Source: Bacillota bacterium
GTDB lineage: Bacteria; Patescibacteriota; Patescibacteriia; Patescibacteriales; UBA12465
DNA: 64,000 nt
Direction of reading: 5' to 3'
Assembly: GCA_050259635.1 (NCBI GenBank)
Contig: JBLNBA010000002.1
Location: 26,681-90,680 of the forward strand
This document shows, piece by piece, positions 2,069-30,523 of the stretch. The notes beneath the pieces are model-generated. The model was given only the letters and a program-made list of their open reading frames with translations, had not been told where the DNA came from and ran no database searches. Made by a program: the position numbers and the translations under genes. Each line of letters begins with the position of its first letter. The first letter of the stretch is position 1.

Positions 2069-3468
2069 GCATAAATCCTATGACTATGAAAAAGAACGAA
2101 GATGAACAAAATATGGAAAAGCTCGTATCGCTTGCAAAGAGGCGTGGGTTCATTTTCCCTGCTTGCGAGATCTATGGCGGTTTTGGCAGTAGCTTCAGTT
2201 ATGGTCCTTATGGCGTAGCGTTGAAAGAGAATATCAAATCCATCTGGCTCAAACGTTTTGTTGGCAGCCGGGATGATATGTACCGCATAGACGGTCCGAT
2301 CATCCTCCATCCGAAAGTCTGGCAAGCCAGCGGGCATACTGAGGGATTTAATGATGCCATGGTGGATTGCAAGAAGTGCAAGAAGCGTTATCGCGCGGAT
2401 CATCTCGTAGAAGAAGCGACCGGAGAAGATCTCGAAGGAGACTTGATGAAGCTGAACGAAGCTTTGGTTACGATCGCTTGCCCGGCTTGCGGAGCCAAGC
2501 AGTGGACGGAGGCCAGGCAGCTCTCTTTGATGTTTGCCACCGAAGTCAACGGTATTTCTGAGCCGGTCTATCTGCGTCCGGAAACTGCGGGTGCGATATT
2601 CATAGAATTTGCTAACGTGCTCGATACGATGCGGCCGAAACTTCCTTTTGGTATCGCCCAAATCGGGAAGGCGTTCCGCAATGAAATCGTGACCGGCAAT
2701 TTCATCTTTCGCGTCCGAGAGTTCGAGCAGATGGAGATAGAATACTTCATTGATCCGGAAATGGAATGGGAGGGAACTTTCGAAGGACTACTCCAAGAGC
2801 AAGAAGCTTTTTGCCGCGACCTCGGCCTCCCGCAGGAATCATATGTGCGACGTGAACATCCGAAGGAGAAGCTATCCCATTATTCTCGTAAGACCGTCGA
2901 CATCGAATACGAGTTCCCATTCGGGCGCAAGGAGCTGTTCGGCTTGGCCCATCGCGGCGACTTTGACCTTAAGCGGCATTCGGAATTCTCAGGCAACAAG
3001 TTAGAATATTTCGACCAAGCAAGCGGCCGTCGCTTTACCCCTCATGTCATTGAGCCGAGTTTCGGAGTGGAGCGCGCGATGCTAGCCGCTCTCCATTCCG
3101 CTTATAAGGAGGAAGCGCTCGACGGTGGAGAAGAACGTTCTGTCCTTAAGTTTCCCGCTTCGATCGCGCCGGTTAAAGTAGCGATCTTCCCTTTGCTTAA
3201 GAATAAGGAACAGCTGGTGGCCAAAGCTAAGGAGATTTACGCTTCGCTTAAGGAAAGCTTCGCCTGTGAGTTTGACGATAATGGCAATATCGGAAAGCGT
3301 TATCGCCGGCAGGATGAAATCGGCACTCCTTTCTGCGTCACTGTGGATTTTGAAACACTTGATGGAAATACCGTTACCGTCCGCGATCGTGATAGCATGC
3401 AACAAGAACGTATCGCTGTTCCAGAACTGGCCGAACGCTTGAGCGTTATGCTCAAAGCAAAGGGTTGA
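2065..3468 (+). CDS. glyQS: glycyl-tRNA synthetase (alpha2 type)
   Basis: 467 aa with RRGFIFPACEIYGG, FRNEI and the CKKCKKRYRADH...CPACG insertion. GTG 2065 overlaps the argS stop (ATGTGA). In-frame ATG alternatives lie at 2080, 2086 and 2113, so the start is uncertain. Confidence 0.9.
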   Translation: MSINPMTMKKNEDEQNMEKLVSLAKRRGFIFPACEIYGGFGSSFSYGPYGVALKENIKSIWLKRFVGSRDDMYRIDGPIILHPKVWQASGHTEGFNDAMVDCKKCKKRYRADHLVEEATGEDLEGDLMKLNEALVTIACPACGAKQWTEARQLSLMFATEVNGISEPVYLRPETAGAIFIEFANVLDTMRPKLPFGIAQIGKAFRNEIVTGNFIFRVREFEQMEIEYFIDPEMEWEGTFEGLLQEQEAFCRDLGLPQESYVRREHPKEKLSHYSRKTVDIEYEFPFGRKELFGLAHRGDFDLKRHSEFSGNKLEYFDQASGRRFTPHVIEPSFGVERAMLAALHSAYKEEALDGGEERSVLKFPASIAPVKVAIFPLLKNKEQLVAKAKEIYASLKESFACEFDDNGNIGKRYRRQDEIGTPFCVTVDFETLDGNTVTVRDRDSMQQERIAVPELAERLSVMLKAKG

Positions 3469-3535: not shown

Positions 3536-3685
3536 CACGGAGGAAAAAAATTGAAAAAACTATTGTGTATTTTTTCTTCTGAGTGTATAATATAAGCAGT
3601 TAGATAAAAATTTTTTTTAAAAAAATTTTACAAAGAATTTTTTTAAAAGATAAATGGGATATTTCCCAGAAAGGAGGTGAGCAAT

Positions 3686-3859
3686 ATGGCTACCAAAAAG
3701 AAACCTGCGGCTAAGAAGGCCGTCAAGAAGCCGGTAAAAAAGGCTGTTAAGACTATTAAGAAGGTTGCGAAGAAAGTGGTTAAAAAAGCTGCTCCTAAGA
3801 AGGCTGCTAAGAAGACCGCTAAGAAACCGGCTGCTAAGAAGACCGCAAAGAAGAAATAA
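3686..3859 (+). CDS. histone H1-like Lys/Ala-rich basic protein
   Basis: 57 aa of KKPAAKKAVKKPVKK-type low complexity. SD AAGGAGG (3671-3677) sits 8 nt before ATG 3686. The track start (GTG 3677) overlaps the SD and is rejected. The gene has its own terminator. Confidence 0.75.
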   Translation: MATKKKPAAKKAVKKPVKKAVKTIKKVAKKVVKKAAPKKAAKKTAKKPAAKKTAKKK

Positions 3860-3964: not shown

Positions 3965-4798
3965 ATGAAGATATTACGGATTGTTTTATATGTTGCGGCC
4001 TTATTGGCCGCATATGCTTGGCTGGCGTCGCCTGATAATGTTGGCGTGGAAGCGATCTTTTTTGACGTTGGCCAGGGAGATGCCTGGCTGATGAAGACAA
4101 AGGCGGGAAAAATCATATTGGTGGACGGTGGTCCGGACTGGAAACTCATTCCTCTCATAGATTCATATCTCGGCCCGGAGAGACGGACGATCGATATTCT
4201 GGTTGCTACCCATGCCCATAGCGACCACCTATCATCTCTTCCCGAGATAACACAGAGATATGAAGTCAGGACGGCGATACTGCCGGTTAGCTTTTCAGGC
4301 GGCGAAGCAGAGTCGTTGGTATCCGCTCTAAAGATGGAAGGTGCAGATATCGTTCATTTGGAAGGGTATCGTTGTCTGGAATTGGAGGAAGATTGTAGCT
4401 TGTGCCTTGATGCGGGAGAGCAGAAGGACACTGAGGATGAAAACGATAATTCATTAATTAGCCGTTGGGACTGCGGCGGAATATCTATCGTGGGAACCGG
4501 CGATGCCGGAATAGGAAGGGAGACTAATTATCTCAAGCAGGCGGGCGGTGAAAGGGCAGACGTCTTGAAAGTTGGGCACCACGGTTCAGATACTTCATCC
4601 TCCAAAGAATTTCTAGCGGCGGTACAACCAAAAATCGCTTATATTTCTGTGGGAAAAGATAATAGCTACGGACATCCCTCTCTTGAAACTTTAGCTAAGC
4701 TTGGGGATATCTTTATAGAAATATGGAGGAGCGATGAGATGGGTTCATTAAGAATTTATGCTAATAATAATAAAATTATTGCGGAAAAATGGCCATAA
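3965..4798 (+). CDS. ComEC/Rec2-type metallo-beta-lactamase-fold protein, stand-alone domain with N-terminal membrane anchor
   Basis: 277 aa. N-terminal hydrophobic helix, FFDVGQGDAWL, the MBL motif ATHAHSDHLSSL, and KVGHHGSDTSS, as in the C-terminal domain of ComEC. Confidence 0.8.
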   Translation: MKILRIVLYVAALLAAYAWLASPDNVGVEAIFFDVGQGDAWLMKTKAGKIILVDGGPDWKLIPLIDSYLGPERRTIDILVATHAHSDHLSSLPEITQRYEVRTAILPVSFSGGEAESLVSALKMEGADIVHLEGYRCLELEEDCSLCLDAGEQKDTEDENDNSLISRWDCGGISIVGTGDAGIGRETNYLKQAGGERADVLKVGHHGSDTSSSKEFLAAVQPKIAYISVGKDNSYGHPSLETLAKLGDIFIEIWRSDEMGSLRIYANNNKIIAEKWP

Positions 4799-4831
4799 GA
4801 ACTCACGACCGGCAGCCTGTGGATAACAGTA

Positions 4832-4860
4832 TTGACAAGCACGGTTTATAATGATATAGT
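4832..4860 (+). promoter_or_regulatory. sigma70-type promoter of the candidate small RNA
   Basis: TTGACA (4832-4837), 17-nt spacer, TATAGT (4855-4860) preceded by TGA (extended -10 TGATATAGT). Confidence 0.6.
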
Positions 4861-4864
4861 TAGG

Positions 4865-5040
4865 GGTTGCTTAAAAACAGAAAAGGCCGTTTGAAACGGG
4901 TCAGGCACGACAAGCATGGGGACTTTCTTGCTAGGGTTTTTTGGGCCTGCCATTGGTACATATAAATATGTATCAGCGGCGGGCTCGGTAATTCCTAGGA
5001 GAAATTTTCTTGCCTACCCGTTTTAGACGGTCTTTTTTTT
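4865..5040 (+). ncRNA. candidate ~175-nt rod-shaped structured RNA (identity unknown; 6S-like size and shape)
   Basis: Lies between its own promoter and a T8 run. 4881-4901 pairs with 5016-5036 over 21 consecutive bp. An apical hairpin spans 4943-4986. No recognisable protein gene. Confidence 0.5.
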
Positions 5041-5041
5041 A

Positions 5042-5070
5042 TTGACAATTTCTATATTTGGGCTGATAAT
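5042..5070 (+). promoter_or_regulatory. sigma70-type promoter, cassette 1
   Basis: TTGACA-N17-GATAAT. The block 5060-5087 (GGGCTGATAATAGTCTGAATCGTTATTT) is identical to 5790-5817. Confidence 0.65.
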
Positions 5071-5149
5071 AGTCTGAATCGTTATTTAATAAATTACTAA
5101 CCAGCCAAAGTCTGATATAGACAAGGCATAAACAAAGGAGGATCAAGTC

Positions 5150-5737
5150 ATGAAAAACAATGACAAGTCTGGATTATTGAATGAAAGTATCGGTGCTATT
5201 ATTGCAACGATGAAAGCTCTCGAGGATTGTGGGATGACAGCCAGCGGATTAGCAAGGTTGCGCTCTGATAAGGGGCTAGCAAAGATGGTGGCAGAAATGG
5301 TAGAGCGTGAAGTGGGCGTTAATCAAGGTATGTCGCAGGCTATCACGGTCGATTATACCAAGACTATTGAGGAGTTCTTATCGGAAATGGATTGCGTTTG
5401 GAAACATAAATATGTTTGTGACAAGCAATTTCCGATTCTCGAAATATTGAAAGGTGAAAAAATTAGAAAAAAGGCCCGCTTGTTCAGGTTTGATGATGAA
5501 AGCTTTGATATTGGAAGCGATTACCGATTTGCGACAATCTTTGAGTTGATTGCGTATTATCGGCAAGTGGAGTACTCTCATGTGTTCCACATCGTTGGTG
5601 CTGGCAGTAAAACGAGCGAATGGGTTGGAGGTCTTATCCCCGTCATAGACACCATTGAGGGTAAAATCAGCCTTGATCTTCGTCATGAAGCGGATGTCCA
5701 TGTAGTCGGTAATTATTTCCTGGCAATTCAGGTTTAA
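5150..5737 (+). CDS. hypothetical protein, paralog A of twin cassette
   Basis: 195 aa. Strong SD (AAAGGAGG) before the ATG, plus its own promoter and terminator. Shares ordered motifs with the ORF at 5841-6278. Confidence 0.75.
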   Translation: MKNNDKSGLLNESIGAIIATMKALEDCGMTASGLARLRSDKGLAKMVAEMVEREVGVNQGMSQAITVDYTKTIEEFLSEMDCVWKHKYVCDKQFPILEILKGEKIRKKARLFRFDDESFDIGSDYRFATIFELIAYYRQVEYSHVFHIVGAGSKTSEWVGGLIPVIDTIEGKISLDLRHEADVHVVGNYFLAIQV

Positions 5738-5740
5738 AGC

Positions 5741-5768
5741 AAAACCCTTCGGTAACGAAGGGTTTTTT
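5741..5768 (+). terminator. intrinsic terminator, cassette 1
   Basis: AACCCTTCG GTAA CGAAGGGTT hairpin followed by a T-run. Confidence 0.8.
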
Positions 5769-5771
5769 ATA

Positions 5772-5800
5772 TTGACTTTTTTCTTATCCGGGCTGATAAT
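5772..5800 (+). promoter_or_regulatory. sigma70-type promoter, cassette 2
   Basis: TTGACT-N17-GATAAT, a duplicate of the promoter at 5042-5070. Confidence 0.65.
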
Positions 5801-5840
5801 AGTCTGAATCGTTATTTTACAAAAAGAGAAAGGAAAAAAA

Positions 5841-6278
5841 ATGAAAGATTCAAAATTTAGAAATAAGGTGTATCTTATTTCCGTAGATTATTCGCAAAGC
5901 CTGGACCAGATGGCGGTGGCATGCAATCTATATTGTAAGGACGGAGAATTTTCTGAGGAGATATATAAGAAAGATCCGAAGTACAAGAACAGGAAAGTTC
6001 TGAGACAAGCAAAGCTGTTTAATTCCAAGGAAGAGCTGGAATTATCTGTAAGAAGTGAAAAATACTTACCAGCGGCTATGAATGACCTGCTTTCATTCTG
6101 CCTGCAATGGTACGAGCTTTGCCGGGATAGCATTATTGTCGCTTCTTGTATTATGCCCGGCAAACCGTCTAAATCAAGTTCGATATATCTGGTCAGCGGT
6201 AAGTATCTTCGGTTTGATTCTTCTTTTGAAAGAGTACCACGAAAATTTTATCTCGCAGTCAGAGACTTGGCAAGATAA
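5841..6278 (+). CDS. hypothetical protein, paralog B of twin cassette
   Basis: 145 aa. A purine-rich stretch (GAGAAAGGAAAAAAAA) precedes the ATG. Shares motifs with 5150-5737 (ISVDYSQSLDQ, RQAKLF, FYLAVR). Confidence 0.7.
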   Translation: MKDSKFRNKVYLISVDYSQSLDQMAVACNLYCKDGEFSEEIYKKDPKYKNRKVLRQAKLFNSKEELELSVRSEKYLPAAMNDLLSFCLQWYELCRDSIIVASCIMPGKPSKSSSIYLVSGKYLRFDSSFERVPRKFYLAVRDLAR

Positions 6279-8785: not shown

Positions 8786-8859
8786 TGGGCCCGGCCCGAC
8801 TCGAACGGGCGACCTTTACGATGTCAACGTAACGCTCTAACCAACTGAGCTACGAGCCC
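8786..8859 (-). tRNA. tRNA-Val (GAC)
   Basis: Hand-folded cloverleaf. Acceptor GGGCTCG/CGGGCCC, anticodon loop TTGACAT, T-loop GTTCGAGTC. No encoded CCA. Confidence 0.9.
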
Positions 8860-8910
8860 TTTATTTCCCTATTATATTGTATAGGTGCGAAATTGGCAAA
8901 TGACGGAAAG

Positions 8911-8984
8911 TGCGCCTAGATGGACTTGAACCATCGACCCCCGCTTTATAAGAGCGGTGCTCTGACCACCTGAGCTATAGGCGC
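8911..8984 (-). tRNA. tRNA-Ile (UAU)
   Basis: Hand-folded. Acceptor GCGCCTA/TAGGCGC, anticodon stem CCGCT/AGCGG, loop CTTATAA (anticodon TAT), T-loop GTTCAAGTC. The body resembles tRNA-Ile2. No encoded CCA. Confidence 0.85.
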
Positions 8985-23592: not shown

Positions 23593-23664
23593 TCGGGCTG
23601 CCCGGAATTGAACCGGGATCACACGCACCCGAAGCGTGTATAATAGCCTTTATACCACAGCCCG
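23593..23664 (-). tRNA. tRNA-Pro (CGG)
   Basis: Acceptor CGGGCTG/CAGCCCG (C1:G72), anticodon loop TTCGGGT, T-loop GTTCAATTC. No CCA. Confidence 0.88.
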
Positions 23665-23669
23665 CGTTG

Positions 23670-23742
23670 TGGACTTGAGGGGACTCGAACCCCTTACCTC
23701 TGCAATGCGAATGCAGCGCTCTACCAGATGAGCTACAAGCCC
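23670..23742 (-). tRNA. tRNA-Ala (CGC)
   Basis: Acceptor GGGCTTG/CAAGTCC with the G3:U70 identity pair. Anticodon loop TTCGCAT. No CCA. Confidence 0.9.
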
Positions 23743-23753
23743 CTGATAATCCG

Positions 23754-23824
23754 TCGGGGTGCCGGGAATTGAACCCGGGCTACATGCACCCCATGCATGC
23801 GTACTACCGTTATACTACACCCCG
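23754..23824 (-). tRNA. tRNA-Pro (GGG)
   Basis: Acceptor CGGGGTG/CACCCCG, anticodon loop ATGGGGT, T-loop GTTCAATTC. No CCA. Confidence 0.88.
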
Positions 23825-28700: not shown

Positions 28701-30178
<1,478 letters not shown>

Positions 30179-30229
30179 TAGTATAGAGATCATCGGTCCC
30201 GAAGGACTGATGAAAAGATTCTGGTTGAT

Positions 30230-30265: not shown

Positions 30266-30523
30266 TTTCATGTTTATTCACCAAGTTTGAAATTGTCAAA
30301 GTTCCGTTGCTTGAAAGCTCGCAAGCTAGACAGAAAAAAACAGAGATATACAAATATCTTGTTTTTATTAACCTATTCTTGTTTTATGTTTTCAAGTAAC
30401 CCTATCTTATATCATTTGCAAACGGCTGTCAAGTATCCTCTGATTGTATAATTTTATTGGAAAAAATCTATAAAATCTGGTATATTATGGGTGACTATAT
30501 AGCTATCAATAAATTGGTTTTTT

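Follow-up and report, generated by a model that had tools for sequence, protein, structure and literature searches.

A widespread family of rod-shaped structured RNAs in Patescibacteria with an invariant one-sided bulge and no match in Rfam 15

We describe here a small RNA gene in a 64,000-nucleotide (nt) stretch of Patescibacteria DNA (contig JBLNBA010000002.1 of assembly GCA_050259635.1), the whole of which is called the window below, with positions counted from its first letter. The gene occupies positions 4832–5040 of the plus strand, and its RNA is a member of a large and widespread family of structured RNAs in Patescibacteria that is not in Rfam 15. The Patescibacteria, also known as the candidate phyla radiation (CPR), account for a large share of bacterial diversity and have tiny genomes, and their regulatory RNAs are, to our knowledge, almost entirely unexplored. 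An earlier note on this DNA had proposed an RNA gene that stands alone, bounded by a promoter and a terminator of its own, and had named conservation and covariation in related genomes as the ground on which the proposal could fail. Both were found: promoter, rod and U-tract are conserved, the stems covary, and the proposal is strongly borne out. The identity of the element as a conserved noncoding RNA gene is close to certain, since it has what is generally expected of a structured noncoding RNA gene, namely its own promoter and terminator, strand-specific stability, compensatory changes and no conserved open reading frame (ORF).

The minimum free energy (MFE) structure computed with RNAfold for positions 4866–5040 (175 nt) is a single rod of −88.1 kcal/mol, a value that none of 200 dinucleotide shuffles equals (−44.5 ± 4.2 kcal/mol; z = −10.4). 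The minus strand folds far less stably, at −53.3 kcal/mol, and 15 of the 71 pairs in the rod are G-U pairs; the structure is thus a property of the plus-strand RNA and not of a DNA palindrome. From its open end upwards, and always on the plus strand, the rod begins with a closing stem, the 5′ strand of which (4879–4907) pairs with 5011–5038 and leaves C4902 unpaired in the MFE; 23 consecutive pairs join 4879–4901 to 5016–5038. There follows the core, AGGCA-CGACAAGCAU-GGGGA (4903–4922), in which a one-sided bulge of 10 nt (4908–4917) is flanked by five pairs below (4903–4907/5011–5015) and by a G-U-rich helix above (4918–4922/5006–5010). This GGGGA/UUUUC helix beside the bulge is weak and has three G-U pairs, and is predicted to be paired. 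A spacer helix (5′ strand 4923–4942, pairing with 4987–5005) leads from the core to an apical module at 4943–4945, recognized by comparison with homologs and made up of G4943-C4986, G4944·U4985 and G4945-C4984. The rod ends in a lineage-specific apical extension (4946–4983), a hairpin of about 17 bp with the loop UAAA at 4963–4966, which is missing from most homologs. The 3′ strand of the rod (4984–5038), placed from the MFE and the homolog alignments, includes the invariant UUCUUGCCU (5007–5015). The earlier note had folded the RNA by hand into one long irregular hairpin, which RNAfold reproduces almost pair for pair: the five pairs next to the bulge, the G-U-rich middle section, the CUAGG/CCUAG helix and the apical stem closed by UAAA are all present in the MFE. 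Two lengths need correction, in that the closing helix has 23 pairs instead of 21, with two extra A-U pairs from the A-run and the U-tract, and the one-sided 5′ bulge has 10 nt instead of 8.

The 18-mer GGCACGACAAGCATGGGG (4904–4921), which served as the search pattern for loci L011–L130 of our collection, occurs in at least 120 species-representative genomes, labelled as Falkow-, Kerfeld-, Uhr- or Parcubacteria or as 'Patescibacteria group'; two chance coding matches and two dubious sequences were removed from the set. Among the 18-mer matches listed, about 115 sequences share the same rod and the same bulge, and in all about 160 homologs share the rod, the 10-nt bulge, the G-U pairs adjacent to it and the second, apical module. 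Most are short forms of about 115 nt, in which 49–58 nt separate the core from its 3′ partner, versus 84–94 nt in the window type, and the window copy represents a minority form with an apical extension of about 32 nt. At the same apical position, some lineages (L058, L072–L074, L097, L106, L107 and L118) have insertions of 70–290 nt, some of which fold as extra branched hairpins. One genome (L092) contains two full copies (469–601 and 2548–2679, minus strand) and, directly downstream of the second of these, a partial one, and its extra copies carry the core variants GCAUAGGG and GCAUGAGG (AUAGGG and AUGAGG).

With a covariance model trained solely on 90 short forms, the full length of the window RNA (4878–5042) scores 115.5 bits, and no second copy is found in the window. 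We also fetched 80 metagenome loci through the protein VanW alone, a sample that is blind to the RNA; in 45 of them the RNA lies just downstream of the VanW gene and convergent to it, with scores of 91–127 bits on the sense strand versus 20–41 bits on the reverse strand. The model could serve for annotating the gene across thousands of metagenome-assembled genomes. The comparison with Rfam that had been suggested for 6S, signal recognition particle (SRP) and other RNAs assigns it to no family: at gathering thresholds none of the 4227 models of Rfam 15 matches the RNA in the window or in 54 homologous loci, and a search of two short stretches of 200–500 nt at E ≤ 10, including window positions 4700–5200, yields only chance microRNA or small RNA matches and no 6S or SRP family. 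Our literature search turned up neither an account of this RNA nor one of 6S or SRP RNA in CPR bacteria.

The RNA product is a double-stranded rod of about 50 bp. The alignments reveal that the rod is under selection for pairing, the sequence of its stems being free to vary while the pairing is kept. In the 90 short forms, 36 of 50 pairs have changes on both sides, and 562 alignment cells are compensatory versus 223 ± 18 in shuffled alignments, of which none in 500 reaches 562. Paired cells make up 83% of the total and drop to 39–62% when the partners are slid by one to three columns. Compensatory changes are seen at 21 of the 26 pairs of the closing stem. Among 21 distinct homologs of the window type, 92% of cells are paired, and there are 22 compensatory pairs, mostly in the apical extension. 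The apical loop measures 3–10 nt among homologs and is not conserved in sequence, and insertions or deletions of 1–2 nt occur in the apical region.

Two modules behave differently. The core, consisting of AGGCA, the 10-nt bulge and GGGGA together with the partners UGCCU and UUUUC, shows no variation in the alignments, and its three G-U pairs are almost never changed to G-C (G-U in 87–90 of the 90 short forms). The apical module is nearly as constant, with the G·U pair in 88 and the G-C pair in 85 of the 90 short forms and no change in any of the 21 long forms. Between the two, the spacer helix covaries in sequence and has a fixed length, 19–21 nt on the 5′ strand and 19–20 nt on the 3′ strand in the short forms, or about two helical turns. 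Two points limit what the core can show. First of all, the use of the 18-mer as a search key biases its apparent invariance among L011–L130. Second, an invariant core offers nothing for covariation to detect, and its pairing is read from the covarying stems that flank it and from an adjacent A-U to G-C change. Support that is free of retrieval by the 18-mer comes from the homologs found by synteny and from the 45 loci found through VanW; the core stretch AGGCACGACAAGCATGGGGA is identical in the first three synteny-found homologs (L002, L003 and its copy L004), a further locus (L005) being without the RNA. The combination of a promoter of consensus strength, an invariant core of about 20 nt and a presence in more than 100 species-level genomes makes it likely that the RNA is a core part of Patescibacteria cell biology.

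The promoter (4832–4860) matches 11 of 12 consensus positions and has in addition an extended −10 TG. Its −35 hexamer TTGACA (4832–4837) is separated by a spacer of 17 nt from the −10 region TGaTATAGT (4852–4860; TG at 4852–4853 and TATAGT at 4855–4860). The near-consensus promoter and the T8 terminator that the earlier note had named are both confirmed. A promoter of the form TTGACN-N17-TAnnnT, with TTGAC(N) as its −35 element, lies upstream of the RNA in 109 of 117 homologs; the TG extension is found in 102 of these 109 and the 17-nt spacer in 103. Judged from the −10 element, transcription would start at about 4866–4867 and produce a short single-stranded 5′ leader, GUUGCUUAAAAAC (4866–4878), before the rod begins. 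The leader may resemble a boxA antitermination element, a reading that we set aside; leaders vary among homologs, with lengths of roughly 0–88 nt and a median of about 16. At the other end, the T8 tract of the intrinsic terminator (5033–5040) overlaps the closing stem, its first six T (5033–5038) pairing with the A-run (4879, 4881–4884) at the start of the rod's 5′ strand, and nearly all homologs have a U-tract immediately 3′ of the closing stem. Promoter and terminator together predict a transcript of about 173 nt for the window copy. Furthermore, positions 4850–4884 (+), which contain the −10 and start region and the whole leader, are 83% identical over 36 nt to positions 30382–30416 (−), which precede the 16S rRNA gene (TGATATAaGATAGGGTTACTTGAAAACA versus TGATATAGTTAGGGGTTGCTTAAAAACA). 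This similarity suggests that the RNA gene and the 16S rRNA gene may share promoter or leader control.

The promoter is also joined to a DnaA box. A perfect box, which reads TTATCCACA on the minus strand and TGTGGATAA on the RNA strand, lies at 4818–4826, 5 nt upstream of the −35 hexamer, and no other perfect DnaA box occurs in the 64 kb. The same box with the same 5-nt spacing is present in L002, L003, L006, L102, L120, L124 and others. In 29 of 117 loci a perfect 9-mer lies no more than 120 nt from the RNA, versus a background of 0.0009 per 240 nt, which is about 270 times the frequency in the remainder of the loci, and boxes near the RNA have nearly always one orientation and either abut the −35 element or lie just past the terminator. 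At the fixed position upstream of the −35 element, 27 of 109 promoters have a box with at most two mismatches. These patterns suggest that DnaA controls the gene, or at the least binds at this locus, in a quarter of the lineages including that of the window. What speaks against a general role for DnaA is that only about 25–45% of lineages have the box, in some of them downstream of the terminator. An origin of replication (oriC) can be rejected at this site, as the GC skew is monotonic across the window and the DnaA box is single. The box joined to the promoter provides a testable link from replication initiation to a structured RNA.

We now turn to what the RNA might do. On both strands, the helices that flank the bulge keep their sequence, even at the wobble pairs, whereas covariation prevails elsewhere in the rod, and from this we infer that a protein reads the shape directly. 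That the RNA is a stable, abundant, trans-acting and protein-binding RNA that serves as a decoy or scaffold and offers a two-part docking site with a fixed geometry seems to us a little better than an even bet. Its genomic context is that of a stable RNA, with a 16S-like promoter and with rRNA genes inside the 8-kb locus in 12 of 54 loci.

The leading specific partner for such a protein-binding RNA is σ70 RNA polymerase, for which it would act as a miniature 6S-like promoter mimic; this is possible, if doubtful. Like 6S RNA (SsrS; RF00013 and related), the Patescibacteria RNA is a stand-alone small RNA, predicted to be strongly expressed, with an end-paired closing stem, a central opening and a terminal stem, and the window copy, at about 160–173 nt, falls in the 6S size range. 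In Escherichia coli 6S RNA the 5′ strand templates the product RNA, and the unpaired bases of the Patescibacteria RNA are likewise on the 5′ strand. In both RNAs, moreover, a weak helix adjoins the opening, and a conserved element lies about two turns along the terminal arm. On this model, the closing stem of about 26 bp would take the place of the downstream DNA duplex, and the 5′-strand bulge together with the meltable G-U helix could act as an open template strand of about 15 nt. Synthesis of a product RNA (5′-GUCGUGCC...) might begin opposite C4911, or close to it, and proceed into the closing stem, and the G-U/G-C module, about 20 bp upstream, would be situated where the −35 contact would fall. 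Arms of about 26 bp and at least 25 bp, the central opening, the weak G-U helix and the ruler of 19–21 nt would together, as we read the anatomy, resemble a 6S geometry.

Several observations weigh against the polymerase model. First of all, the central bubble of 6S RNA is two-sided, whereas here the bulge of 10 nt is one-sided, and the 3′ strand opposite it has 0 unpaired nt in every MFE. Second, a 6S-type rod with closing and terminal stems measures about 150–200 nt, which the window rod (4879–5038) fits, but most members have only about 115 nt and are shorter than any 6S RNA known to us. Third, an invariant core of about 20 nt is unusual for 6S RNA, which is conserved mainly in shape. Finally, the Rfam 6S models give no score. 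The membership of the 6S family that had been suggested from size and shape is thus not supported, there being no model match and no two-sided bubble and most members being so short. Were the RNA nevertheless a true 6S equivalent, it would be the smallest and most asymmetric RNA-polymerase decoy known, which would explain why standard 6S models miss it.

A serious possibility, to which we give somewhat less than an even chance, is that the RNA is a new Patescibacteria-specific ribonucleoprotein or regulatory RNA with a mechanism unrelated to 6S or SRP RNA. The two modules would then dock another partner, and synthesis would be wired to DnaA, for example linking replication status to ribosome or envelope biogenesis. 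If not a 6S equivalent, the RNA would be a new RNA-protein machine. Orphan structured noncoding RNAs such as the raiA motif, OLE and HEARO are comparable in that they, too, show covariation together with invariant loops, occur in one bacterial group and had no known function at discovery. What sets the RNA described here apart from those classes is its plain rod shape, combined with a consensus promoter, a DnaA box and a conserved tail-to-tail link to VanW, and no model in Rfam 15 matches it.

The bulge could alternatively act by base pairing, in a regulatory or assembly RNA whose rod presents the 10-mer as a seed for an invariant target, the candidate target being the 5′ strand of helix 34 in 16S rRNA; we consider this unlikely. 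A conserved single-stranded 10-mer in a stable scaffold is the typical architecture of a seed, the gene is often near rRNA genes, and it has promoter features in common with the 16S gene. Moreover, ACGACAAGCAUG (4907–4918) is complementary at 11 of 12 positions to CAUGGUUGUCGU of the 16S rRNA of the window (about 1022–1033), in the 5′ strand of helix 34, which is universally conserved. This match has an E-value of about 11–14 in BLAST, with a central G-G mismatch, and by our own rough estimate p is about 0.05–0.1 in 4.4 kb of rRNA. As the sole match and one with a chance-level E-value, it led us to reject mimicry of, or complementarity to, rRNA. The remainder of the window has no complementary site. 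Near the start of the VanW mRNA, the duplex energy is −10.6 kcal/mol versus −10.8 ± 1.1 kcal/mol for shuffled seeds, and antisense or seed control of the neighbouring VanW mRNA is rejected since this is no better than shuffled seeds. A seed also leaves unexplained the invariance of both flanking strands with their three G-U pairs and the second module 20 bp away; because both flanking strands are invariant, a base-pairing seed alone is insufficient.

That the RNA is a divergent SRP (4.5S) RNA of this clade, a hairpin of about 115 nt in which the invariant internal loop is the binding site for Ffh, is decidedly improbable. The short forms do match 4.5S RNA (RF00169) in their size of about 115 nt and in their end-paired hairpin shape, the promoter is strong, and a highly conserved internal-loop core is typical of an SRP-like protein-binding site. 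The segment GUCAGG...AAGCA also loosely resembles the helix 8 sequence GUCAGG...GGAAGCAGC, a likeness that does not amount to a test. A regular-expression scan of 1.4 Mb of fetched loci found no canonical SRP motif, which would leave room for a divergent one; the scan is underpowered, with about 1.4 genes expected, so that absence is expected by chance. Set against these likenesses is the anatomy of the apex. The apical loop of 3–10 nt is unconserved and lacks a GNAR tetraloop, the apex has no pair of symmetric and asymmetric loops as in helix 8, and near it only the G-U/G-C step is invariant. The conserved site, by contrast, is a one-sided bulge in the middle of the rod, about 25 bp from the apex, while the apex itself tolerates insertions of 30–290 nt. 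Furthermore, no Rfam SRP model matches at E ≤ 10, and the RNA is duplicated in one genome (L092).

It is very improbable that the element is an oversized bidirectional terminator, a DNA palindrome or a repeat between convergent genes instead of an RNA gene in its own right. Its flanking A- and T-runs give the rod the look of a terminator on both strands, and it usually lies tail-to-tail with the VanW gene, but a near-consensus promoter of its own precedes it in 109 of 117 homologs, VanW has a small terminator of its own at many loci, and both the G-U pairs and the strand-asymmetric model scores point to selection on one RNA strand. The invariant unpaired bulge, the single copy per locus and the lack of any repeat in the window argue against it as well. 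A repeat or mobile element was likewise rejected, given that the window has no second copy and that a search for GGCACGACAAGCATGGGG in viral contigs gave no match.

The weakest reading, a hok-like type I toxin mRNA encoding a hydrophobic peptide and silenced by 5′–3′ pairing, had been raised in the earlier note for the 36-aa ORF at 4916–5026 (+), which exists as described, with a hydrophobic N-terminus and no Shine-Dalgarno sequence ahead of its AUG, in an end-paired transcript; it is refuted because the frame from the invariant core AUG varies from 4 to 36 or more codons by species (it ends after 5 codons in 19 species and after 18 in the close relative L002), apical insertions and deletions of 1–2 nt occur, and substitutions preserve base pairs and not codons. 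We thus do not regard this ORF as a gene. The resemblance to hok/Sok mRNAs, a short transcript with long-range 5′–3′ pairing and a small hydrophobic ORF, is confined to the window genome, and unlike in those systems it is the RNA pairing that is conserved, without an antisense RNA gene; a consensus scan of the minus strand at 4866–5040 found no promoter, which taken alone is weak evidence.

Upstream of the RNA gene, the window encodes a metallo-β-lactamase (MBL)/ComEC-like protein that has no relative above 48% identity, the nearest named one being a Falkowbacteria protein at 40%. A first genome scan with this protein gave no match, and synteny was found through homologous proteins and the contigs that encode them. 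In related loci the order ArgRS, GlyRS, small Lys-rich protein, MBL, a gap of about 290 nt and convergent VanW is kept, and the gap contains the same RNA, with AGGCACGACAAGCAUGGGGA unaltered and compensatory changes in the apical stem. Over the whole collection, the upstream neighbours vary and include RNase J, ClpP, UvrA and MBL genes. Downstream, by size and orientation, 66 of 108 loci have a convergent ORF of 560–740 aa and 22 a convergent ORF of about 245 aa. Pfam searches of a sample of these neighbours identified all 7 large ORFs tested as VanW/PG_binding_4 proteins and found a DAGK_cat domain in both small ones.

In the window itself, two ORFan genes, 5150–5737 (195 aa) and 5841–6278 (145 aa), lie between the RNA and VanW, and close relatives are without both. 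Their promoter and 5′ regions (5033–5093 and 5763–5823) are 84% identical over 61 nt, and a terminator precedes each gene, and the pair looks like a recent tandem insertion or duplication. Searches of the two proteins against Pfam and PADLOC returned no family, and their sole PHROG match is borderline (E = 0.008) and of unknown function.

Some further features of these loci may be recorded. The gene at 3677–3859 (+), between GlyRS and the MBL gene, encodes a histone H1-like protein of 60 aa, nearly all of it repeats of Lys, Ala, Pro and Val; ORFs of similar size (about 50–68 aa, with no Pfam match) occupy the same place in most related loci, as matched by size and position alone. About 23 VanW loci that lack the RNA (among L133–L164 and others) have a yidC-like gene as their convergent downstream neighbour, a call read by eye from ...QFWQAKMM...MNKQMLYFMP..., which makes the product a candidate membrane insertase. 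The 16S rRNA gene of the window (28701–30180, minus strand) stands alone, with no 23S or 5S gene in the 64 kb, and the rRNA genes are thus unlinked. The window also has tRNA genes in two places, three at 23593–23824 and two at 8786–8984.

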